Shown here one piece after another: positions 9,984-43,963 of a stretch of 49,435 bases of DNA. The DNA is taken from positions 1 through 49,435 of IMG/VR virus record IMGVR_UViG_2526164669_000023; one strand, written 5' to 3'. The stretch comes from a virus (Duplodnaviria; Heunggongvirae; Uroviricota; Caudoviricetes). A program made the translations under genes and the position numbers. The notes beneath the pieces were generated by a model. It made no database searches. It was not told the origin of the DNA and was given only the letters and a program-made list of their open reading frames with translations. How positions within the stretch are numbered: the stretch's first letter is position 1; each line of letters opens with the position of its first letter.

Positions 9984-10718
9984 ATGAAAAATATTGCGGC
10001 AGGCGGCATTCTTGAACGTATCCGCAGACTGGCCCCGCCACATGTAACCGCCCCATTCAAAACGGTAGCGGAGTGGCGCGAGTGGCAACTTTCCGAAGGC
10101 CAGAAACGTTGTGAGGAGATCAACCGTCAGAATCGTCAGTTGCGGGTGGAAAAAATTCTGAACCGCTCTGGCATCCAGCCATTGCACCGCAAATGCTCGT
10201 TTGCGAATTACCAGGTGCAGAACGACGGTCAGCGATACGCGTTGAACCAGGCGAAATCTATCGCTGATGAACTGATGACCGGGTGTACAAATTTTGCGTT
10301 CAGCGGAAAACCTGGTACCGGAAAAAACCATCTGGCGGCGGCTATCGGGAATCGCCTGCTGAAAGATGGCCAGACAGTGATTGTGGTTACCGTGGCTGAT
10401 GTCATGAGTGCTCTACACGCCAGCTATGACGACGGGCAATCAGGCGAAAAATTTTTGCGGGAACTGTGCCAAGTGGATCTGCTGGTTCTTGATGAAATTG
10501 GCATTCAGCGCGAGACAAAAAACGAGCAGGTGGTGCTGCACCAGATTGTTGATCGCCGGACAGCGTCGATGCGCAGCGTGGGGATGCTGACAAACCTGAA
10601 CTATGAGGCCATGAAAACATTGCTCGGCGAGCGGATTATGGATCGCATGACCATGAACGGCGGACGCTGGGTGAATTTTAACTGGGAGAGCTGGCGTTCG
10701 AATGTTGGCTTGCGATGA
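9984..10718 (+). CDS. ydaV: DnaC/IstB-like replication ATPase YdaV
   Basis: 244-aa ORF with Walker A GKPGTGKNHL and Walker B LLVLDEIG; lambda P-equivalent position. Confidence 0.8.
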   Translation: MKNIAAGGILERIRRLAPPHVTAPFKTVAEWREWQLSEGQKRCEEINRQNRQLRVEKILNRSGIQPLHRKCSFANYQVQNDGQRYALNQAKSIADELMTGCTNFAFSGKPGTGKNHLAAAIGNRLLKDGQTVIVVTVADVMSALHASYDDGQSGEKFLRELCQVDLLVLDEIGIQRETKNEQVVLHQIVDRRTASMRSVGMLTNLNYEAMKTLLGERIMDRMTMNGGRWVNFNWESWRSNVGLR

Positions 10719-10826
10719 TTTTTATGAGGAAATAATCGACGAATGAGGGCTAATGTCTGGTCACCCGGTTGACAATTACAAATATTTTATTGACGATGAA
10801 TGGAAAATGCGTGACGATTACAATAT

Positions 10827-11960
10827 ATGACTTGTCAAAGTATAATGAGAGATTGCATGAAGATTAACCATGAGGATTTAATTGATCTTATAAAGGCATC
10901 ACTGGATGCGAATTACAGCGAAGTTCGTAGTGTTAGTAATCGCATTGTTCGCGCAATTAGCGCTCAGGATGCTGACTTAGCAAAGCAAATTAAGTCTATC
11001 ATCCGTAAAAAAGGGGTACCATTACGTAGCTCTGGTTATACGGACAGTTTGCCCTTAGATCCGAAATCAAGGATGCCTTTAGTGGAAGAAGTCGAATGGC
11101 CTGCAACGCCTTTATTTCTTTCTGATGAATCACAGCATATTTTTCATGCTTTTATTCAGAATGTTATCCATCAGAATGAACTTATAGAGAATGGAATTCC
11201 AGGTAAATTGAATTTACTTCTTTCTGGTCCGCCAGGAACAGGTAAGACATTAGTCGCTGGTCATATCGCATCCAAATTAAACAAACCGCTCTATGTTGTT
11301 CGGCTTGACTCTGTTATTTCTTCTCTGTTAGGTGATACAGCGAAGAACCTAAGACAGATTTTTGACTTCGTCCCGACAAAAGATGGTGTGTTATTTCTTG
11401 ATGAAGTAGATGCGGTTGCTAAGCTTCGTGATGACAATCAGGAAGTTGGAGAGTTAAAAAGAGTTGTTAACACATTAATCCAAGGACTGGATTCTCTTGA
11501 TGATTCTGCTATTGTCATTGCTGCAACTAATCATTCGAAGCTATTGGATCCAGCAATTTGGAGACGTTTCCCATATAAAATTAGCTTTGGTTTGCCTGGA
11601 CAAGATGTCAGATGTGCTATGTGGGAACATTTTTTATTTAGAGATGATACGGATTCATTTCTAAGTAAAATGTTATCTATCATATCAACTGGGCTAACAG
11701 GTGCTGATATTGAAAATATCAGTTTATCTGCAAGAAGGCATAGTGTTTTATCTGGCAATGGACTGGATATACCATCTGTTGTTTATGCTATATTGAATAG
11801 CGTTGCAGATAGTACAGCAATTCCTTTTGGTAAGGATATAAATTCGAGTGTTAAGAAAAATTTAGCGAAGGAATTATCTAAGTTTAAATTATCACAGGCA
11901 GATATCGGTAGACTTTTAAATGTGAGCAGGCAAACTATATCAGGTTATTTCAAGGAATAA
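10827..11960 (+). CDS. Classical-clade AAA+ ATPase with C-terminal HTH (candidate defense ATPase, IetA-like)
   Basis: Walker A LLLSGPPGTGKT, Walker B VLFLDEVDA, sensor-1 IAATN, Arg-finger region LDPAIWRRFPY; C-terminal XRE-like HTH LSQADIGRLLNVSRQTISGYF. AT-rich relative to flanks. Alternative start at Met11 (10857). Confidence 0.75.
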   Translation: MTCQSIMRDCMKINHEDLIDLIKASLDANYSEVRSVSNRIVRAISAQDADLAKQIKSIIRKKGVPLRSSGYTDSLPLDPKSRMPLVEEVEWPATPLFLSDESQHIFHAFIQNVIHQNELIENGIPGKLNLLLSGPPGTGKTLVAGHIASKLNKPLYVVRLDSVISSLLGDTAKNLRQIFDFVPTKDGVLFLDEVDAVAKLRDDNQEVGELKRVVNTLIQGLDSLDDSAIVIAATNHSKLLDPAIWRRFPYKISFGLPGQDVRCAMWEHFLFRDDTDSFLSKMLSIISTGLTGADIENISLSARRHSVLSGNGLDIPSVVYAILNSVADSTAIPFGKDINSSVKKNLAKELSKFKLSQADIGRLLNVSRQTISGYFKE

Positions 11961-11962
11961 TT

Positions 11963-12538
11963 ATGGTCAGTGAAAATAAAGCTAAAATTTTAAACCCAAT
12001 AATTACTTTATTGAAGCCACCAACGCCAGAGGCGATTCCTGTTGGAGGGAAAAGTCGTAAAAATATTGTTGATTCACGGTTGAAACAACAGCGTGAAGTT
12101 TTATCCTCAGAGATAGATTCCATATTAAGAACAGAAGGTGAAATAGTTAAACATCGTGGTAAGTATCATATAGTAACAAGTATGTTTGAGGACTCATATG
12201 CACCATCGTTTATACCAGATTCATTATTCTGTCCCAGTGTTGAATGTAAGATAGTTGCACCAGCATACAATGGATATTTAATTGAGGTCAATAGCAATGC
12301 TTTATTGAAGTTGAAAAATAAAATTAATAATGCAAAAGCTATTACTGATCTTGTGGATATTTCAAGGGTTAGAAGTGTTAGTCTTTTTGATTCATCTTGT
12401 ACATTGCGAAATAGTAGCCTTGATTCGCTCTGGAATACAGTTAAGGCTTTGAATACATTTCAATTTAATATGTGGCTTATGCCTTTTTTTGATGAGCTTT
12501 CTAGAGAGTCTGTAGTTTCAACTTTTTTAAATTTTTAA
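11963..12538 (+). CDS. Hypothetical protein, middle gene of ATPase/protease cassette
   Basis: 191-aa ORF starting 3 nt after the ATPase stop; AT-rich; no motif I recognise. Confidence 0.55.
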   Translation: MVSENKAKILNPIITLLKPPTPEAIPVGGKSRKNIVDSRLKQQREVLSSEIDSILRTEGEIVKHRGKYHIVTSMFEDSYAPSFIPDSLFCPSVECKIVAPAYNGYLIEVNSNALLKLKNKINNAKAITDLVDISRVRSVSLFDSSCTLRNSSLDSLWNTVKALNTFQFNMWLMPFFDELSRESVVSTFLNF

Positions 12539-12741
12539 ATGATGGTATCATCGCTTTTGGTTATTCAGATTTTGACATAAAAACTATAAATCAAGATGCT
12601 GCTGTTGGCGGGGATAATATAGTCATAGTTCCACCGTTACTTATTGAAGCGATAAAAAAGTATCGTAAATCAGGTCAAGCATCCGTTACCGTCACTGTAG
12701 AGACTAAAGATAGTTTAAACAGGATACTGAATAGCAGTGCT

Positions 12742-14229
12742 GTGTATCGTATAGATCCTGTATCACCGCTAAACGTAACAGATACTCCTCCTGGTAATGG
12801 GGCTGAACCTGTTCCACCAATATTGGGGGATAAGAAAATGCCAACTGTAGTTGTAATTGATGGTGGGTGTAATGCGAAATCATATTCAAATTTAAATATA
12901 TATAAACTAAATCCGCTAATTCCAGATCATGATGCAGATTGTAAACATGGTAATAAAGTTGTATCGTTGTTATGTCACGGTTATGCTTGGAATAATAATT
13001 TAAACTTACCTAAATTGCAATGTAGCTATATAAGTGCACAGGCTATTGCGAAAAGGGGAGTGTTGAAACAACCAACTCCGGATCAATTTTTAAATTATTT
13101 AAGAATGGTTGCTGACAAAACGTCATCTATCGCCAAGGTCTGGAATCTTTCGTTTAATGAAGACGCTCCTCATTATAACTGTAATGAGATAAGTTATCTG
13201 GGACATAAAATCAGTTTGTTGGCTCGAGAATTTGGTATTCTGCCTGTAATATCTATCGGTAATGTTTCAAAGAACGAAAAACAAAAAAATCTTTGTCCGC
13301 CCGCAGATTGTGAGTCAGGAATTACAGTAAGTGGGAGAACGGCCAATCATGAAGGAATGCCTTCAGATGGCTGTCCTTTAAGTCGGAAAGGCCCTGCTCC
13401 TGCAGGAATGAAAAAACCTGAGTTATCATGGTTTTCTCGAGTTAGGGTGATAGGTGGAACAGTAGATATCGGAACAAGTTTTAGTGCTCCATTAGTTTCA
13501 TCTATTGCTGCTCATACCTTTTCGAATATTAAAAATGCCACTCCTGATTTGGTTAGGGCATTATTGATTAACAGGAGTGAGTTGCTTTCTCATGATGATG
13601 CATTAGGATGGGGGACTCCTTGGGATGGCGATTTACTGCCATGGTATTGTAAAGATGGCAGTGTCACATTAACGTGGATATCTAAGTTAAAGGCTGGGGC
13701 TGCTTATTATTGGAACGATCTTCCATTACCTCCAGAGATGTTAGTTAATGGTAAATTAGTTGGTGAGATATCTCTGACAGCTATACTAAAACCTAAGGTT
13801 TCTGAGTTCGGAAGTGAGAACTATTTTTCGACAAGGCTCCAATGTTCGTTACAGGCAATAAAAGAAATTAACGGAACGCTAAAAACAGAAAGCCTTCTTG
13901 GGTCAATGAAAGAATCTTCTGTTGATGAGCGTAAAGCTAGAAATGAACTTTCTAAATGGAGCCCTATTCGCCATCATGCAGAGTCGTTTAAGAGAAAAGA
14001 TATAACAGGGTGTAAAATTCGGCTTTATGCTAGGATATATGCTAGAGATTTGTATCAGTATGGGTTAAATAACCAACGGGAGCTTGAAGAGCAAGAGGTT
14101 TCCTTTGTTTTAACTTTTAAAAGTGTATCAGGATCGTCCTCAATATATACATCAATGGTTCAGCAACTTGGTGTTTATGTTGAAAGTGCTGTTATAGATA
14201 ATCACATTAACATAGATGTTAATAAGTGA
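12742..14229 (+). CDS. Subtilisin-like serine protease (peptidase S8) with C-terminal extension (IetS-like)
   Basis: D-H-S triad motifs in canonical order: VVVIDGGC, CKHGNKVV, GTSFSAPLVSSIAA; about 250 extra C-terminal residues. Track start is GTG; an ATG (MPTVVVIDGG) lies 32 codons downstream; in-frame stop at 12616. Confidence 0.75.
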   Translation: MYRIDPVSPLNVTDTPPGNGAEPVPPILGDKKMPTVVVIDGGCNAKSYSNLNIYKLNPLIPDHDADCKHGNKVVSLLCHGYAWNNNLNLPKLQCSYISAQAIAKRGVLKQPTPDQFLNYLRMVADKTSSIAKVWNLSFNEDAPHYNCNEISYLGHKISLLAREFGILPVISIGNVSKNEKQKNLCPPADCESGITVSGRTANHEGMPSDGCPLSRKGPAPAGMKKPELSWFSRVRVIGGTVDIGTSFSAPLVSSIAAHTFSNIKNATPDLVRALLINRSELLSHDDALGWGTPWDGDLLPWYCKDGSVTLTWISKLKAGAAYYWNDLPLPPEMLVNGKLVGEISLTAILKPKVSEFGSENYFSTRLQCSLQAIKEINGTLKTESLLGSMKESSVDERKARNELSKWSPIRHHAESFKRKDITGCKIRLYARIYARDLYQYGLNNQRELEEQEVSFVLTFKSVSGSSSIYTSMVQQLGVYVESAVIDNHINIDVNK

Positions 14230-14268
14230 TGTACAGAAACTGATTTATTATTATGTTAATTAATGTAT

Positions 14269-14295
14269 TACCCGCTTCGGCGGGTTTTTGTTTTT
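14269..14295 (+). terminator. Rho-independent terminator after the cargo cassette
   Basis: CCCGC-TTCG-GCGGG hairpin followed by TTTTTGTTTTT. Confidence 0.7.
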
Positions 14296-14419: not shown

Positions 14420-14593
14420 ATGAAAATCGAAGAATTGCGTGAAATTTTTAGTGAAAATGGCCTCTATGCTGTGCGCGTTGAGAATGGGAAAGTTGTCTAC
14501 ACAACGTTAATCCCTGATGATCATGTAATTTTATCTATCGAGGCATTCATTGAATACCTTGAAAGGCTCGGTTTCAAGGTGATTCGGGAATGA
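14420..14593 (+). CDS. Small hypothetical ORF (57 aa)
   Basis: Hand-read ORF MKIEELREIFSENGLYAVRVENGKVVYTTLIPDDHV... in the gap between the cassette terminator and the next gene; below track cutoff. Confidence 0.3.
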   Translation: MKIEELREIFSENGLYAVRVENGKVVYTTLIPDDHVILSIEAFIEYLERLGFKVIRE

Positions 14594-18034: not shown

Positions 18035-19600
18035 ATGTCCAAAAAGAGAAAATCCAGGAGCACTATGGAAACTTGTTTTAAGATCCTTCAGCTCAAGTTC
18101 GATAAGAAGCTGACTAACCGTTGTATCGGACTGACGTTACACATCAGCGCCTCAACCGTTTTTGAGGTTCTTGCCCGCTTCAAAGCCTCTTCTCTGTCAT
18201 GGCCATTACCTGCTGATATATCCCATGACACGCTGGAGAAACTCATTTTCCCGCCCAAAGACACCTCTGCGTCAGAGCTTGTTATGCCTGACATGCTGTA
18301 CTTCGATACGGAAATGAGAAAACCTGGCGTGACGCGCCAACTGTTGTGGATGGAATACAAGGCACAGGCGGGTGACAAAGCGATGGGATACTCACACTTC
18401 TGCCGTTGCTACCGGAAGTGGAAAAAAACGCGACGCCTCTCCATGCGACAGGAGCATCGTGCTGGCGAAAAGCTCTTTATCGACTTCTGTGGTCCTACGC
18501 TTCCTGTTATTAATCCGGACACCGGAGAGATACGCCGCGTGGCAATCTTCGTGGCTGTAATGGGGGCGTCCAACTATACCTATGTTGAAGCGTGCGAAGG
18601 TCAGGACATGATGTCATGGTTAAATGCCCACAGCCGTTGCCTGACCTTCCTGGGCGGCGTACCGAAGCTGCTCATCCCCGATAACCTCAGAAGCGCAGTG
18701 AAAAAAGCCGATCGCTATGAGCCTGTCATCAACGACAGTTATCAGGCGCTGGCTGAGCACTATGGCACGGTTATTATCCCGGCCCGCCCGCGCAAACCTA
18801 AAGATAAACCAAAAGCAGAAAACGGCGTCCTCATCGTCGAGCGATGGCTTCTTGCCCGCATCCGTAATGAAACCTTCCACACGCTCAGGGCGCTGAATGC
18901 ACGCCTTCGGGAGTTGCTGACGGACATGAATAACCGACCAATGAAGGGATACGGTAATCAAACCCGCGCAGAACGCTTCCGCATGCTGGATGCACCAGCA
19001 CTCTCTCCGCTGCCTCTGGAGCCTTATGAATACACGGAATACAAAGCCGTGAAGGTTGGCCCTGACTACCACGTTGAATATGCCCGTCACTGGTACTCCG
19101 TTCCACACGAACTGGTCGGTCAGCGTCTGTCACTGAAGGTGGGGCAGTCGGTGGTACAGCTCTGGCACAAGGGGCAGTGTGTGGCGCAACATCCGCGCAG
19201 CACACATGAATATAAACACACAACCAATCCGCTTCACATGCCAGAACGCCACCGGCGGCATGGGACATGGACACCGGAACGCCTTATCGAGCAGGGAAAC
19301 CGTACAGGTCCGTCCACAGGCCGGGTGGTTGAATCCATGCTGAAAGCCAAACCCCATCCGGAGCTGGCTTACCGTGCAGTCCTGGGTCTGCTGGCACTTC
19401 AGAAAAAATACGGCCCGGAACGGCTGGAAAAGGCCTGTTACGTTGCCCTGCACTATAACGCCCCGGACAGACGCTTTATCGACAATCTGCTGCGTCATCA
19501 TCGGGATAACGTTGAGCTTCCGTTATCCCGCCAGGGCGAACAACATCCGGCATATGCTTCAGAGCATGAAAACCTGCGTGGTCCTGGCTACTACCACTGA
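18035..19600 (+). CDS. istA: IS21-family transposase IstA
   Basis: 521 aa from MSKKRKSRSTMETCF; N-terminal HTH and DDE-type core; followed by an IstB ATPase. Confidence 0.8.
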   Translation: MSKKRKSRSTMETCFKILQLKFDKKLTNRCIGLTLHISASTVFEVLARFKASSLSWPLPADISHDTLEKLIFPPKDTSASELVMPDMLYFDTEMRKPGVTRQLLWMEYKAQAGDKAMGYSHFCRCYRKWKKTRRLSMRQEHRAGEKLFIDFCGPTLPVINPDTGEIRRVAIFVAVMGASNYTYVEACEGQDMMSWLNAHSRCLTFLGGVPKLLIPDNLRSAVKKADRYEPVINDSYQALAEHYGTVIIPARPRKPKDKPKAENGVLIVERWLLARIRNETFHTLRALNARLRELLTDMNNRPMKGYGNQTRAERFRMLDAPALSPLPLEPYEYTEYKAVKVGPDYHVEYARHWYSVPHELVGQRLSLKVGQSVVQLWHKGQCVAQHPRSTHEYKHTTNPLHMPERHRRHGTWTPERLIEQGNRTGPSTGRVVESMLKAKPHPELAYRAVLGLLALQKKYGPERLEKACYVALHYNAPDRRFIDNLLRHHRDNVELPLSRQGEQHPAYASEHENLRGPGYYH

Positions 19601-19616
19601 CAGAAGGAACAACCGT

Positions 19617-20372
19617 ATGAGTGATAATCTGTTAAACAAACTGACCCAACTGAAACTCCCGGCGATGGCCGGGAGCCTGATACGGCAACGGGAAACGCCT
19701 CAGACTTACGACGAACTGTCGTTCGAGGAAAGGCTGACACTGCTGGTTGATGACGAGCTTCTGAGCAGAGAAAACAGTCGTGTGGCACGGTTGAGAAAAA
19801 ATGCCTGCCTGAAATATCAGGCAACACCGGAAGGGCTGCGTTATCCGGCCTCAAGAGGTCTGCGGGCTGAACAGATGAGGGAACTGCTGAACGGCCACTA
19901 CATAATCCACAGGAAAAACCTACTGATAACCGGTCCGACAGGATGCGGTAAGAGCTGGATAGCCAATGCGCTGGGCGAACAGGCATGTCGACAGAAATAC
20001 AGCGTCCGGTACTGTAGAACCGGGCGATTACTGGAACAGTTGGCTCAGGGACGTGTTGATGGCAGTTGGCTGAAATATCTGAAACAGTTGCAAAAAATAC
20101 AGGTTCTAATCCTGGACGATCTGGGGCTGGAACAGTTAAGTAACGCCCAGTGTAATGACCTTCTGGAGATCACAGAGGATCGTTACGGACAAAGCAGCAC
20201 GATAGTGGTAAGCCAGTTCCCGGTAGATAAATGGCATGGTCTGATGGAGAACCCAACAACAGCAGATGCCATCCTGGACAGACTGGTACATAACTCACAC
20301 AGAGTGGTCCTTCAGGGAGAGTCCCTGAGGAAAAATCCCCCGACAGTGGAAAGCAGCGAAAAAACGAGTTAA
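19617..20372 (+). CDS. istB: IS21-family helper ATPase IstB
   Basis: 251 aa from MSDNLLNKLTQLKLPAMAG; Walker A GPTGCGKSWIANAL, Walker B VLILDDLG. Confidence 0.8.
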   Translation: MSDNLLNKLTQLKLPAMAGSLIRQRETPQTYDELSFEERLTLLVDDELLSRENSRVARLRKNACLKYQATPEGLRYPASRGLRAEQMRELLNGHYIIHRKNLLITGPTGCGKSWIANALGEQACRQKYSVRYCRTGRLLEQLAQGRVDGSWLKYLKQLQKIQVLILDDLGLEQLSNAQCNDLLEITEDRYGQSSTIVVSQFPVDKWHGLMENPTTADAILDRLVHNSHRVVLQGESLRKNPPTVESSEKTS

Positions 20373-21147
20373 AAAGCGGTAGAAAAAGTTAAGTTCCCGG
20401 TTGATCGAATGGATGCGAATCGCTGATCGAACTTCGATGCCAATCCGTGATCGAATAGAGCGGAATACGCAAATAACGTAAATTGTATGCGTATGATACA
20501 TATTTATACATATATTTAAATATGAAAACTAATTAGTTTTTGATGTCATATAAATTATCGGTAATATTACTCCCGACCCGAAAGGCAGCAAGTTTCTGTT
20601 CACAGGGGTGTTACCCGCTGTCTTGCGGGTCATTGCAGGCATCCGTTTAATCATAATGAAGGGCTGTTATCAGTATCAGTGTCATTATTGTGGTTACGGA
20701 GGCCTGCTCTATGTGCAGGTATCGTATAGTGGTTATTACATCAGCCTTAGGTTGGTAATGCCGGTTCGATTCCTGTTCTCCGCAACTTCATTGTTTTTTG
20801 GACAAGTTTTTACAGCACTGGCGGTTTTCGTGAGGAACAGATCTCTTTAATACCTTTATCGTCCCTCATTCTGTAATGGAGATCGGTTACAGACTCAGTG
20901 CTGTATTTTTTATGACACAGAAATGGCGCATTGCCCACGAAAGGAAGCAGGATTTAGCGTGGAGTAACCAGTGATGCGCCATCTCTGTGTCGGAAAACAT
21001 GAATTGGGGCGTTCCTCAGTGCGAGGGTGGTTTATAGAGTCGGTTTAGCGGGAAACCACAGTATCCACGTAAAGTGGAATACTTCGGGAGGCACCCGATG
21101 CCCCAAACCCAATAATCATTATAATATTGTGTCCTTTTATCGTTTTA

Positions 21148-22974: not shown

Positions 22975-23766
22975 ATGAGCGAGAAATTGAAGATCGTCTA
23001 TCGCCCGTTACAAGAACTGTCTCCGTATGCACACAATGCCAGGACACACAGCCCTGAGCAGGTGGCACAACTGGTAGAAAGCATTAAGCAATTCGGCTGG
23101 ACTAATCCAGTGCTGATTGATGAAAAGGGCGAAATTATTGCTGGTCACGGTCGCGTTATGGCGGCTGAGGCGCTCAAAATGGATTCGGTTCCGGTTATTG
23201 TTCTGTCTGGTCTGACGGATGATCAGAAAAAGGCGTACCGCCTGGCAGATAATCGCCTGCCGATGAATGCTGGCTGGGATGAAGATCTGTTACGGATGGA
23301 GCTGTCGGACCTAATCAATGCTGATTTTGATATCTCCCTGACAGGATGCAGCCCGACAGAAATTGATGAACTGTTGACGGATGTTTTGCCCGGTACAGGA
23401 AATGAGGAGGAACCGTACACGACGAAAATTGATACGCCTGTTTATGAGCCGTCGGGCGATAAACCAGATATCAGTGAACTGTACGACGATACGAAAACTC
23501 AGGAGTTGATCAGCCGGATACGTTCGGCGTCCCTTGATCCTGATATTGAGAAATTCCTCCTGTGTGCGGCAGAACGTCATACGGTGTTTAATTTCAGCAG
23601 AATTGCGGACTATTACGCTCACGCCCCCGCTGAAATTCAGTGCTTTTTCGAGGAATCGGCGCTGGTGATCATTGATTATCAGCAGGCTATTGAAAATGGA
23701 TTTGTCCGGATGACGCAGCGTATGGTGGAGATCATGCATGGCGGGGAGGAGGAGGAATATGCGTGA
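22975..23766 (+). CDS. ParB-like nuclease domain protein
   Basis: 263-aa ORF; N-terminal ParB/Srx-type motif (LIDEKGEIIAGHGRVMAA); acidic C-terminus; upstream of terminase genes. Confidence 0.6.
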   Translation: MSEKLKIVYRPLQELSPYAHNARTHSPEQVAQLVESIKQFGWTNPVLIDEKGEIIAGHGRVMAAEALKMDSVPVIVLSGLTDDQKKAYRLADNRLPMNAGWDEDLLRMELSDLINADFDISLTGCSPTEIDELLTDVLPGTGNEEEPYTTKIDTPVYEPSGDKPDISELYDDTKTQELISRIRSASLDPDIEKFLLCAAERHTVFNFSRIADYYAHAPAEIQCFFEESALVIIDYQQAIENGFVRMTQRMVEIMHGGEEEEYA

Positions 23767-24697
23767 TGATTTTTGCGCCTTTATTCTGACTCACGGGCGA
23801 CCGGACAAAGTTCTGACTTACCGGACGTTGCGTCGTGCTGGCTATACCGGGAAAATTTTTATCGTTGTTGATGATGAAGATAAAGATAATACACGGCATC
23901 ACTACATAGCTGAATTTAGTGAACAGGTGCTGGTGTTTTCCAAAGCCGATATCGCCAGTCGTTTTGACGAAGCCGATAATTTCGGTGACCGCCGATCAAT
24001 TTTTTACGCCCGTAATGCCTGTTTCGACCTGGCAAAACTGGTCGGGTGTAAATACTTCATTCAGCTCGATGATGATTATCACGAGTTCCAGTTTCGGGTG
24101 GATCGCAACTATGACCAGGCCTATTTCCCGATAAGAAAACTGGATGCGATCCTTTCTGAAATGCTGGCGTACTACGAATCAATACCTGCGCTTTCCATCG
24201 CTATGTCGCAGGGCGGAGATTTTCTTGGTGACAATGGCGGCCATGCTTCGTGGGTGAAACGCAAGGCAATGAACAGTTTTATCTGTTCCGTTGATCGACC
24301 GTTCTCATTCATGGGGCGCATTAACGAGGATGTGAATACGTATACGAATCTTGGTCGCTGTGGTGAATTGTTTATGACGATCGGTGCTGTCCAGTTAGGG
24401 CAGAAACAGACGCAGAAAAACAGCGGCGGAATGACCGAGCTGTATCTGGACTCCGGAACCTACGTTAAAAGTTTTTACTCCGTCATGTATGCGCCGTCGT
24501 GCGTAAAAATCTCACTGATGGGTGCCAGCCATAAACGCATTCACCATCAGGTCACCTGGAACAACGCTGCAGTAAAAATCCTTCACGAAAAATACAGGAA
24601 GAAGACACCCTGCATATCAATGGGGGTGACAAATGATTCCGTATTCGAAAGTAGAGTCTCTGGCAGCGTGCCGGATGACTGCACAACAAATCGCTGA
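23759..24697 (+). CDS. Hypothetical protein, possible GT-A-like glycosyltransferase
   Basis: 312 aa from MRDDFCAFILTHGRPDK; candidate DXD motif FIQLDDDY; RBS GGAGGAGGAA; overlaps the ParB-like gene by 8 nt. Function is a guess. Confidence 0.4.
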   Translation: MRDDFCAFILTHGRPDKVLTYRTLRRAGYTGKIFIVVDDEDKDNTRHHYIAEFSEQVLVFSKADIASRFDEADNFGDRRSIFYARNACFDLAKLVGCKYFIQLDDDYHEFQFRVDRNYDQAYFPIRKLDAILSEMLAYYESIPALSIAMSQGGDFLGDNGGHASWVKRKAMNSFICSVDRPFSFMGRINEDVNTYTNLGRCGELFMTIGAVQLGQKQTQKNSGGMTELYLDSGTYVKSFYSVMYAPSCVKISLMGASHKRIHHQVTWNNAAVKILHEKYRKKTPCISMGVTNDSVFESRVSGSVPDDCTTNR

Positions 24698-27311: not shown

Positions 27312-28751
27312 TTGATGGCAGAGATCGAGATTACTGGCGGCCTCGGTTCAGCACTGATGCGTATTCTTGAGGCTGAAGAAATTCAGCCGGGAACCGATAT
27401 TGGCTATGAATTGTGTAAGCTGCTGTGGCAATTCCATCCTCTGGGCGGAAAACTTGTCGAAAAACCCATACTGATGGCGATGTGTAAGCCGCGACAGTAT
27501 AACGTGGAGACAGATCCTGACGAGAGGGTTGTGCGGCGTTTCCAGGAGGTATGGGAACGTATGAGGGTCAACGAGAAGATAAAAAATCTGTTTTTTCTGT
27601 CTCGTTGCTACGGTGCTGCAGCGATCGGCGTGGGCACCGACAGTGTTTCATGTCGTGAGCCGCTTCCGACATTCGGGCTGACAGAAGAGGATGTGTATAT
27701 CAACGCGTGGGATCCGTTGAACGCTTCCGGTTCGATGGTGACTGACCAGAACCCAAACAGTCCGTTTTTCCAGGAAGCCAACAAAAGGCTGAAGATTGGC
27801 GGAAAAGACTGGCATCCGTCACGCACACTGAAAATCTTCAACGGCACACCGATTTATCTGGAGTTTCAGAGTTCATCGTTCGGATTCACCGGACGAAGTG
27901 TGTTTCAGCGCGTTCTTTATTCCCTGAAATCCTATATCAACACGATGGAGGCGAATGATCTCGTCAGTCAGAAGGCGGGCGTACTGGTAGCTAAAGTTGT
28001 GCAGTCCGGTTCGAAAATGGACGGGATCATGGCTGCTGCCACGGGGCGTAAAAGGGAAAACGTGAAAGCCGCCAAAAATAAAGGCGTGTTGAGTATTGGA
28101 AAAGACGAAGACGTAAGTTCACTGAACCTGCAAAACATCGACGGGGCGCTGAATACTGCCCGCGACAATATCATTGCTGATATTGCCGCCGGGAGTGACG
28201 TTCCGGCCATTATTATCAAGGAAGAAGCATTCAGTAACGGATTCGGTGAAGGTAAGGAGGACTCGAAAGCCATCAGCCAGTATATCGATGGTGTACGCCA
28301 GCAGATTGAACCTGTGATGGATTATTTCGAACGCCTGGTGCAGTACATCGCCTGGAACGAGGAATTTTATCAGTCGCTGAAAAATGATTACCCGGACATC
28401 ATAACCGAGGACTATAAAACCACGTTTTACCAGTGGCGGCGCGAGTTTACCGCGACGTGGCAGGAGCTGGTGGAGGAGTCGCCGGACAAACGCCGGGAAA
28501 GCGACAGTAAAGTGATTCAACAGGCGATAGCACTTTTCTCTGCCGTGTCGCTACAGGTTGATCCTGAAAACCGTGCCGCCGTCACTGAATGGCTGGCAAG
28601 CCTTGTTAATGCCACGCAGACCTATGGCGAAGCTCCACTCATCATTGATGTGGACGCCCTGGCGAATTATGAACCACCGAAGCAGGAGACGCCTGATGGC
28701 AATTTCCAGCCGGGCGGGGAGGAAGAAGAAACGGATCAGGACGCTGTATGA
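27312..28751 (+). CDS. Portal protein (putative)
   Basis: 479-aa ORF immediately after TerL; acidic C-terminus; assigned by position and size. Confidence 0.5.
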   Translation: MMAEIEITGGLGSALMRILEAEEIQPGTDIGYELCKLLWQFHPLGGKLVEKPILMAMCKPRQYNVETDPDERVVRRFQEVWERMRVNEKIKNLFFLSRCYGAAAIGVGTDSVSCREPLPTFGLTEEDVYINAWDPLNASGSMVTDQNPNSPFFQEANKRLKIGGKDWHPSRTLKIFNGTPIYLEFQSSSFGFTGRSVFQRVLYSLKSYINTMEANDLVSQKAGVLVAKVVQSGSKMDGIMAAATGRKRENVKAAKNKGVLSIGKDEDVSSLNLQNIDGALNTARDNIIADIAAGSDVPAIIIKEEAFSNGFGEGKEDSKAISQYIDGVRQQIEPVMDYFERLVQYIAWNEEFYQSLKNDYPDIITEDYKTTFYQWRREFTATWQELVEESPDKRRESDSKVIQQAIALFSAVSLQVDPENRAAVTEWLASLVNATQTYGEAPLIIDVDALANYEPPKQETPDGNFQPGGEEEETDQDAV

Positions 28752-42104: not shown

Positions 42105-42308
42105 TTGAATACGCAAGGGATGATTACGTATGTTTGGAGGTCTTCCGTGATTAATTTTAGCGGAGGAGACTGGATTGTGAAAGCCTTAAAATTAGTGGCA
42201 AAAAGCAATACCTTACGACGCATGTATTACACCGCTGCACTCGTAGCTTTAGCATTTGCCTTTTCACCAGTACTGACAGAGTTAGTTAAAGTGATGGGGG
42301 CACGATGA
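42105..42308 (+). CDS. Small hypothetical protein (67 aa)
   Basis: ORF with one hydrophobic segment (YYTAALVALAFAFSPVL); stop overlaps the next start (ATGA). Confidence 0.35.
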   Translation: MNTQGMITYVWRSSVINFSGGDWIVKALKLVAKSNTLRRMYYTAALVALAFAFSPVLTELVKVMGAR

Positions 42309-42652
42309 GAACATGGGGCCGCGTCACCGACGCGAACGGCAACAAAAAATGGGTTACAGTAGAATCTGACGCCAACGGTGATTTCTCCTATGGCTGGCTG
42401 ACGACGCTCATTCAGACGTTAAAGCTGGGATTGGGGGAGTCGCCGTTTTACGCGAATTACGGTATTCCTGCACAGCAGTGCATCGTGCAGCAGATTTACC
42501 CAGACTACTATGTGAACATGGTTCAGCAACAGTTTGCTGGGTATTTTGCATCACTGGCAATTTCAAAGGTAGATGGAGCAGATAACCCCACCTATAACAT
42601 CGATGTTGTGTTTTTTAATGGGACCAGTTACCGGACGCAGGTGCCGGTATGA
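42305..42652 (+). CDS. Baseplate protein (gpW/gp25-like, putative)
   Basis: 115-aa ORF, size and position as for gpW-type baseplate wedge proteins. Confidence 0.4.
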   Translation: MRTWGRVTDANGNKKWVTVESDANGDFSYGWLTTLIQTLKLGLGESPFYANYGIPAQQCIVQQIYPDYYVNMVQQQFAGYFASLAISKVDGADNPTYNIDVVFFNGTSYRTQVPV

Positions 42653-42802
42653 ATCACAGTTTTATGATAAAACTTTTACCTTGGTTTGGAGTGCTGTAGA
42701 GAGATATTTTAGGGGGGGCGAGTAATTTTCTAAGCTGGAGCATATTGACATATATTATTTCGGATTTGCAAAATACATATTGTTACCATGGAGGAGACAA
42801 GC

Positions 42803-43963
42803 ATGGAAAATTTTGCAAATAAGTTAAAAATACACACAGAGCATGTTGCAAAAATGGGGGTGTTTTGTACAACTGAAGAAACGACAAAACAAGCACTCAT
42901 TATGCCATTACTAGATATTCTTGGTTTTACTCCGTATGATCCAAGAAAAGTCAAAGCTGAGTATAGTGCTGACTTCCCCGGGGTTAAGGCTAATGAACGG
43001 GTTGATTACGCTTTATTTTGTCATGATGTTCCTGTGATGTTCATTGAGGCGAAATCGTTTTCAGAACAAATTGATAATCACTGCCCACAGCTATCAAGAT
43101 ATTTTAATTCAACACCGGAAGTTACTATATCAGCCATTACAAATGGTGTTGAATGGCGTTTTTTTACGGATTTGAAACAAAAAAACATAATGGATTCAAC
43201 GCCGTTTTTAAAAATAAGAATGGATTCTCTAACTCACTCCGATATTACACAATTATTTCGTTTTCGTTATGATAAATTCAAACCAGAGGCTTTACGGACA
43301 CTGGCTGAAGAAAGTGTTTATTTGAATTCATTTACTAAAACAATCAGTTCTAGTCTTCGTGAAGTTGATCTGGAGTTTGTTCGATATGTTGCTAGTCGTT
43401 CAAATATTGAGAGACAACTTAATCAGAGATTTCTTGAGTTCGTGACTCCATTAGTTAAACAGGCCGTTGAGCGCGCTGTTAGCGCAATGGTGGTTTCCGG
43501 GCTATCTACACAACCGGTAGAGCAAACTAAAGAAAATGATGCAACGGATACACAAGTTAATAACGCCATTGTTGATGAAGAAAACCCCAACATAATAACC
43601 ACAGCCAAAGAATTGGAGCTATTTGAAAGGGTAAAACAAATCATACAAACAGAAGATAATATAGAATATAAAGATACTGAGTCATATTTTGGTGTACTAT
43701 TGAATGGTAAAACTAATAGATGGCTGTTAAGATTTTATGATAAAAAATCTTCATTTATAACTTTACCTATTTCGCTTAGTGAAGTTCAGTTGAATGAAAT
43801 AAGACGAGCTCGACTTGATACGGATGGTAAAAGGATACATATAACTAATCCGGAAGATATACTTCGCATATCTGGTTTGATTCTGGATTCATACGAGTAT
43901 GTTAAAAATGATGATAATTTCCGCCGAGGGTCCAGAGCGAGCAGTTTAGAAGAGGTTGAATAA
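42803..43963 (+). CDS. PD-(D/E)xK nuclease-fold protein, HsdR N-terminal-like domain (moron; candidate defense gene)
   Basis: About 386-aa ORF; motif ERVDYALFCHDVPVMFIEAKSF (D...E-A-K); AT-rich, own RBS GGAGGAG, promoter-like AT-rich upstream region with TTGACA at about 42745, own terminator. Confidence 0.65.
   Translation: MENFANKLKIHTEHVAKMGVFCTTEETTKQALIMPLLDILGFTPYDPRKVKAEYSADFPGVKANERVDYALFCHDVPVMFIEAKSFSEQIDNHCPQLSRYFNSTPEVTISAITNGVEWRFFTDLKQKNIMDSTPFLKIRMDSLTHSDITQLFRFRYDKFKPEALRTLAEESVYLNSFTKTISSSLREVDLEFVRYVASRSNIERQLNQRFLEFVTPLVKQAVERAVSAMVVSGLSTQPVEQTKENDATDTQVNNAIVDEENPNIITTAKELELFERVKQIIQTEDNIEYKDTESYFGVLLNGKTNRWLLRFYDKKSSFITLPISLSEVQLNEIRRARLDTDGKRIHITNPEDILRISGLILDSYEYVKNDDNFRRGSRASSLEEVE

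Follow-up and report, generated by a model that had tools for sequence, protein, structure and literature searches.

The AT-rich cassette at positions 10827-14295 of the IMG/VR virus record IMGVR_UViG_2526164669_000023 (a 49,435-nucleotide [nt] stretch of Caudoviricetes DNA that was analyzed whole and is referred to here as the window) raises the question of whether it encodes an undescribed three-gene defense system or a known system in an altered form. The original prediction, made from the sequence alone, correctly placed three co-directional open reading frames (ORFs) on the plus strand at 10827-11960, 11963-12538, and 12742-14229 and likened their combination of an ATPase and an S8 protease to the antiviral ietAS pair. 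However, it set the cassette apart from ietAS by a third, middle gene, a C-terminal helix-turn-helix (HTH) on the ATPase, and a long extension on the protease, and on these grounds considered it the best candidate for an undescribed defense system in the window. Our analysis indicates that the cassette is almost certainly IetAS in its canonical two-gene form, sitting as cargo downstream of ydaV in a Rac-type prophage, with ietS split by the loss of a single T. The suspected resemblance to ietAS is therefore better described as outright membership, and all three supposedly distinguishing features fail to separate the cassette from this catalogued system. In the following, the PADLOC names IetA and IetS correspond to the NCBIfam names IteA and IteS (NF042959 and NF042956, respectively). 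The features on which this reading depends are as follows.

10857..11960, plus strand: ietA, an AAA+ ATPase of 367 amino acids (aa) matching PADLOC IetA, NCBIfam IteA_antiphage, and Pfam AAA, with an HTH-like C terminus.
11963..14229, plus strand: ietS, a subtilisin-like S8 protease gene encoding 755 aa if intact, with a 1-nt deletion frameshift in the window.
11963..12538, plus strand: ORF2, the supposed middle gene, 191 aa; encodes IetS residues 1-190, part of the N-terminal domain, and ends at a premature TAA (12536-12538).
12742..14229, plus strand: ORF3, 495 aa from a GTG start; IetS residues 261-755, comprising the last strand of the N-terminal domain, the linker, the S8 core, and the C-terminal beta domain.
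12532..12536, plus strand: the frameshift site, a T5 homopolymer (T6 in the intact allele) and the sole difference from NZ_AP042478.1.
12859-12861 (D300), 12946-12948 (H329), and 13477-13479 (S506), plus strand: codons of the IetS catalytic triad.

The supposed second and third genes matched successive parts of one protein family. ORF3, in which a subtilase D-H-S triad had rightly been recognized, matched Pfam Peptidase_S8 (E value, 2e-14) and the PADLOC IetS profiles (E value, 1e-58), with profile coverage from approximately position 266 onward. ORF2 matched PADLOC IetS (E value, 2e-5) at positions 21-166 of 749, within the first ~170 positions of profiles that span ~750 to 800 aa. Because ORF2 matches the N terminus of the IetS profile and ORF3 matches the remainder, we consider the two ORFs to be pieces of one gene. 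The frame of ORF3 is open upstream to ~12503, overlapping the end of ORF2 within an A/T homopolymer patch (AACTTTTTTAAATTTTTAAATG), and addition of one T to the run at 12532-12536 merges ORF2, the 204-nt gap, and ORF3 into one 755-aa ORF. The product of this repaired ietS matched PADLOC IetS PDLC02197 with an E value of 1e-65, and its residues 30-736 aligned to positions 22-731 of 747 of NCBIfam IteS_antiphage. Since family profiles cover the protease end to end, the long C-terminal extension is, as judged from these alignments, a canonical IetS family feature and does not separate gene 3 from IetS. Gene callers report 191-aa and 495-aa fragments, the latter from an internal GTG, because the T6 run lost one T at codon 190/191. 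We found no convincing Shine-Dalgarno sequence for this GTG, which lies 204 nt past the ORF2 stop codon.

The intact allele is present in a finished genome. The region 1643578-1693013 of NZ_AP042478.1 showed zero substitutions relative to the whole 49,435-nt window, with T6 versus T5 as the one difference, and the ietS frame that is interrupted in the window is uninterrupted there. RefSeq/PGAP annotates this region with a single 755-aa S8 family peptidase (WP_096150140.1) directly after a 367-aa AAA ATPase (WP_000700156.1). We also found the exact intact 755-aa IetS in 50 public contigs, and most members of the 90%-identity cluster around it are likewise 755 aa long. With the repaired IetS as the query, we recovered 277 homologues, and the best 120 of the 277 were nearly all 730 to 770 aa long with 98 to 100% query coverage. 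By contrast, the DEC11B draft is the sole record of the exact 191-aa product, and for the exact 495-aa product the records are that draft and two Logan read-set assemblies, one of which is disrupted by an insertion sequence (IS) and not frameshifted.

Conservation within the family extends across the supposed middle gene. In IetS alignments of 13 and of 64 homologues, with identity down to 43 to 44%, the ORF2 region contained 17 invariant columns among the 13 homologues and 9 among the 64, with invariant residues that include P12, P22, G29, M74, P85, G104, E108, R135, and W171. An invariant tyrosine, Y234, falls in the supposed intergenic gap, and D300, H329, and S506 of the triad were invariant in 64/64 homologues. 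What was read as a middle gene is thus a conserved domain, the N-terminal one of IetS, that a 1-nt frameshift has severed. Consistent with these findings, all three diverged loci that we examined (a Klebsiella michiganensis chromosome, a Pseudomonas aeruginosa lambdoid prophage, and a Mesorhizobium chromosome) encode a 363- to 371-aa AAA ATPase followed after a few bases by a 735- to 757-aa S8 peptidase. No middle gene occurs at any of these loci, whose flanks are unrelated among the three. Co-occurrence of three genes in other genomes, which a true trio had been expected to show, was therefore not what we observed, as only the AAA and S8 genes were found together.

Structural modeling placed the break inside a folded domain. 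We made an AlphaFold2 model on the cluster representative P0004, which is 99% identical to intact IetS (predicted local distance difference test [pLDDT] score, 87.4; predicted template modeling [pTM] score, 0.90). Four parts can be distinguished in this model of IetS, namely, an alpha/beta domain at the N terminus (residues ~8-266), a short disordered linker (275-281), the S8 core (~295-545), and, at the C terminus, a beta domain (~560-745). Residue 190/191, where the frame is lost, is within helix 178-193 of the first of these, and the ORF3 GTG (V261) lies within the last strand of the same domain. Structure prediction of both the 191-aa protein and the protease C terminus had been proposed with the original prediction; the latter is modeled as a beta domain, whereas the former does not appear to be a self-standing protein. 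Because the split ignores the modeled domain boundary, an evolved two-polypeptide arrangement seems disfavored. A search of the IetS family profile against PDB sequences gave no matches, so there was no solved IetS-type structure to use.

The first gene of the cassette is a full-length ietA. Its start at 10857, giving 367 aa, is better supported than the ATG at 10827 that had been assumed previously (377 aa), because PGAP uses 10857 and residue 8 of the 367-aa form aligns to position 7 of NCBIfam IteA. The product matched PADLOC IetA PDLC02196 with an E value of 5e-100, with residues 6-366 (16-376 in the 377-aa form) on positions 5-369 of 374, and NCBIfam IteA_antiphage with an E value of 1e-88, with residues 8-361 on positions 7-367 of 367. 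The classical AAA+ motif set that had been noted in this gene is complete, with an intact Walker A motif (GPPGTGKT, G124-T131, including K130), an intact Walker B motif (LFLDEVD, with D182/E183), and a match to Pfam AAA (E value, 4e-29). The ATPase core is most similar to the Cdc48/p97/VAT protein-unfolding AAA+ machines (E value, ~1e-41). Since the PADLOC IetA alignment runs through the C-terminal region, the HTH tail of the ATPase appears to be a canonical IetA family feature rather than an add-on, and it lies within the family profiles that were thought to exclude it. The exact IetA protein occurs in 136 public contigs. The profile searches proposed at the outset with Pfam AAA, Pfam Peptidase_S8, and PADLOC all returned matches.

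Together, a full-length IetA-family AAA+ ATPase, an IetS-family S8 peptidase of ~750 aa with the D/H/S triad (encoded by the repaired ORF), and the position of ietA (ending at 11960) immediately 5' of ietS (starting at 11963) on one strand, a layout shared with the three diverged loci, place the cassette in IetAS. Some of our observations weigh against this reading or parts of it. Both proteins missed the NCBIfam equivalog cutoffs, with 297.7 versus 510 bits for IteA and 178.3 versus 900 bits for IteS, and identity to the PGAP-named iteA and iteS products of Escherichia coli CT282 (NZ_CP095798.1) was 36% for IetA and 27% for IetS (residues 278-736). Pairwise BLASTP of ORF2 or the N-terminal domain against CT282 IteS was not significant, and similarity in this region is shown by profiles and closer homologues alone. 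In addition, an independent IS-type disruption of ietS (assembly SRR29694602, described below) indicates that real inactivation of this gene occurs. Because the scores fall below the cutoffs despite end-to-end alignment, we consider the pair to be homologous to, but outside of, the curated IteA/IteS equivalog subtype. The low identity suggests a diverged IetAS subtype with putative anti-phage activity, and this subtype is, at the level of sequence, already covered by the PADLOC IetA and IetS profiles.

A genuine three-gene undescribed system, composed of an ATPase with an HTH, a small adaptor, and an N-terminally shortened protease, would account for the three ORFs called in both the window and the DEC11B draft and for the behavior of ORF2 alone, which had no match in Pfam and no homologues in a word-indexed search of a 5.8-billion-protein index. 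The full-length query succeeded in the latter search, and we attribute the result with ORF2 to a failure of word-index sensitivity because the 755-aa cluster representative that contains ORF2 should have matched. What decides against a three-gene system is that ORF2, the gap, and ORF3 are collinear with a single ~750-aa IetS in every homologue examined and that one nucleotide restores the single ORF found in NZ_AP042478.1; a break within a modeled folded domain and the lack of a clear ribosome-binding site for the ORF3 GTG count against it as well. We regard a three-gene system as hardly credible and effectively refuted. The system offers little that is new, as IetAS is catalogued and is detected by existing defense-finder profiles.

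If the cassette is IetAS, the T5 allele may be an error, a mutation, or a switch. The contig AIGW01000029.1 of the E. coli DEC11B draft is identical to the window over 13.5 kb, T5 included, so the window was probably taken from this draft. In the Logan assembly SRR096907, the prophage segment recurs, identical across 6.77 kb and with T6, but an additional T at 12519/12520, 12 nt upstream in the same homopolymer patch, creates a different frameshift. The combination of no substitutions across 49.4 kb with a single homopolymer indel, and the disagreement of two assemblies within the same 15 nt, lead us to favor an error at the homopolymer, made in sequencing or assembling the DEC11B draft, over a true T5; IetAS would then be normal and intact in the strain. 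Somewhat less probable, although to be taken seriously, is that the frameshift is real and very recent, which would make ietS a freshly inactivated pseudogene and leave an orphan ietA antitoxin gene with no defense function. Loss of ietS would be in keeping with the cost of a toxin gene, as homologues of SGI1-type antitoxins outnumber those of the toxins (412 versus 187; PMC5006074), and the T5 allele has been deposited in a public assembly. Furthermore, in another sample, the Logan assembly SRR29694602, one end of a multi-copy mobile element (TACCAAAATCATTAGGGGATTCATCAG) breaks into ietS at ~12673, and this terminus is present in 3,079 plasmid records. Our search did not name this terminus, which we take to be the outer end of IS10/Tn10. 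Inactivation is more difficult to reconcile with the absence of any further decay relative to the genome carrying the intact allele, with a lesion of the exact type expected of homopolymer sequencing errors, and with the disagreement at the T run in a second assembly of the same prophage. Across public data, we observed three distinct ietS disruptions (loci L004 and L005): T6 to T5 in DEC11B, the T inserted at 12519/12520 in SRR096907, and the mobile-element end at ~12673 in SRR29694602.

The T run could alternatively be a regulatory switch that tunes expression of a toxic protease, either by T5/T6 phase variation or by -1 ribosomal frameshifting at A_AAT_TTT-TAA. The 0 frame of the T5 allele, TTA AAT TTT TAA, does present an X_XXY_YYZ heptamer beside a stop codon, and a -1 slip would give ...STFLNFLNDG..., which is identical to the intact protein. 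However, such a heptamer would arise by chance from any 1-nt loss in the T run, the allele commonly seen is T6, the gene is not split in homologues, and a run of 5 or 6 Ts is short for slipped-strand phase variation. A downstream stimulatory structure was not found (z, -0.80; 41 of 200 shuffles folded equally well). Programmed -1 frameshifting was rejected due to this lack of a downstream structure and to T6 being the norm, and we consider a switch at this site to be very improbable. We give equally little credence to a genuine T5 allele that is not dead, with trace amounts of full-length IetS made by low-level -1 slippage or with toggling between T5 and T6 in populations. Were this the case, the run would serve to dim, or to turn on and off, a toxic abortive-infection protease in a heritable manner.

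Our assignment of the cassette to IetAS, with T5 probably an error, allows comparison with described systems. IetAS as an anti-phage system is credited to Gao et al. (2020, Science 369:1077) in the passage of PMC13069673 that cites it. The comparator iteA-iteS pair of E. coli CT282 shares with the present pair the two-gene arrangement of an ATPase gene and then immediately a protease gene, the product sizes (382 and 752 aa in CT282 versus 367 and 755 aa here), a classical AAA+ core, and an S8 core with the D/H/S triad and a conserved C-terminal domain, with profiles aligning end to end. It differs in residing in a tRNA-Thr island whereas the present pair is prophage-borne, and the ietS of the window is frameshifted, in addition to the low identities and missed cutoffs noted above. 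In contrast to the prophage-borne pair, ietAS of the Agrobacterium Ti plasmid pTiC58 and sgiAT of Salmonella SGI1 are characterized as plasmid and island addiction modules; they are alike in pairing a subtilisin-like protease with an AAA-ATPase, a likeness drawn from their descriptions without sequence comparison. The pTiC58 ietAS pair was reportedly described by Yamamoto et al. in 2009.

In both pTiC58 ietAS and SGI1 sgiAT (Huguet et al. 2016), the protease is the toxin and the ATPase the antitoxin, and both modules stabilize mobile elements (PMC5006074; PMC13069673). The toxin gene always adjoins the antitoxin gene in pairs of this type (PMC5006074). The ietHAS system of Liu-DS4 has the same IetA and IetS core but includes a real third gene, for an SNF2-family helicase, whereas the present cassette has only a split ietS; defense by ietHAS needs protease activity (PMC13069673). 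Other IetAS members lower phage plating and require the catalytic serine (PMC13069673; bioRxiv 10.1101/2022.08.21.504612; bioRxiv 10.1101/2022.08.27.505566). In Bacillus cereus, ietAS brings about abortive infection in response to a phage protein whose function is unknown (bioRxiv 10.1101/2022.08.27.505566), and E. coli ietAS has been noted within prophage regions (bioRxiv 10.1101/2022.08.21.504612). The mechanism by which IetAS acts against phages is still unknown (PMC13069673).

By analogy with the literature on these IetAS and sgiAT members, IetS would be a protease toxin and IetA its ATPase antitoxin. The similarity of the ATPase core to Cdc48/p97/VAT unfoldases suggests that IetA may hold IetS in check by ATP-dependent remodeling. 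A phage product would then disturb this restraint, and the freed IetS would arrest the cell, resulting in an abortive infection that needs the catalytic serine.

For annotation more broadly, a single homopolymer indel in AT-rich cargo can turn a known two-gene system into an apparent three-gene novelty. The indel in this case probably comes from an older draft assembly, and split ORFs need comparison by profile coordinates and with sister genomes before claims about architecture are made. The cassette itself is of minor value as a rare, diverged IetAS subtype in E. coli and as one more case of prophage-borne defense cargo. Its limits and signals are as follows.

10709..14265, no strand assigned: AT-rich cargo insert of ~3.56 kb with a GC content of 0.365, in the variable slot after ydaV of the Rac-type prophage.
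10817..10846, plus strand: promoter-like site just upstream of ietA (ATTACA-18-TATAAT, 10/12 matches), a candidate on weak evidence only.
14270..14295, plus strand: intrinsic terminator closing the cassette, with a ACCCGCTTCGGCGGGT hairpin (6-bp stem with 5 GC pairs and a TTCG loop) and then the T run TTTTGTTTTT.

The setting of the cassette is largely as it had first been described, namely, an AT-rich stretch that ends at a strong terminator and occupies a cargo hotspot between a DnaC-like replication gene and the Q region, where K-12 Rac carries unrelated genes. The GC content of the insert at 10709-14265 (0.365) compares with ~0.49 in each flank and 0.471 in the whole window, and the sequence closing the cassette resembles an intrinsic terminator. 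We place the insert at ~3.56 kb because similarity to other E. coli ydaV copies ends at ~10705-10708 and similarity to other lambdoid prophages restarts at ~14265-14270. The number of promoter-like sites in the region equaled the expectation from shuffles. The DnaC/IstB-like ydaV lies directly upstream of the cassette, and a DUF1367/DUF1364/DUF1133 (Q-like) block lies downstream. The same slot holds ydaW, rzpR/rzoR, and trkG in K-12 Rac, DNA methyltransferases in other Rac-type prophages, and, in yet another Rac-type prophage (NZ_CP026085.1, locus L013 7153-10356), DUF1627 and DUF977 genes followed by a trio encoding a DUF262 protein, an AAA family ATPase, and a hypothetical protein. Cargo slot is therefore a fair label for the position after ydaV. 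The prophage carrying the cassette is of the Rac type, with an integration site that adjoins ttcA. We found the cassette in 1 of 5,426 complete E. coli genomes, that of strain OkiPb01675 (NZ_AP042478.1). In the phage database, no sequenced phage has the cassette, and only distant S8 peptidases with ≤27% identity were recovered.

We made several minor observations in and around this prophage. The NZ_CP026085.1 trio (DUF262, AAA family ATPase, and hypothetical protein) resembles a different defense-type cargo. Just 3' of the terminator, a 57-aa ORF at 14420-14593 has a precomputed match to Pfam Rem (PF27490) in the DEC11B locus; the PGAP annotation at this position is limited to a partial pseudogene of 78 nt. 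Among the baseplate genes, at 42305-43963, lies a second AT-rich island (GC content, ~0.35) that encodes a hypothetical protein of 115 aa and a larger one, of 386 aa, with an N-terminal HSDR_N nuclease-like domain (Pfam PF04313; E value, 5e-14) that PGAP names a type I restriction endonuclease. Neither protein had a PADLOC match, and the island is possibly a stand-alone nuclease moron. The 478-aa head-module protein encoded at 27315-28751 carries the putative PGAP label of anti-CBASS protein Acb1 family and had no PADLOC match. At 22975-24697, a protein with a ParB/Srx N terminus, which matched the PADLOC type II methyltransferase profile PDLC03229 (E value, 2e-37), is followed by a GREB1-related protein, with the terminase genes just downstream. 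Finally, an IS21-family element (ISSso4 istA and istB) is inserted at ~18065-20373, with the prophage tRNA-Ile/tRNA-Arg pair on one side and the lysis genes on the other.

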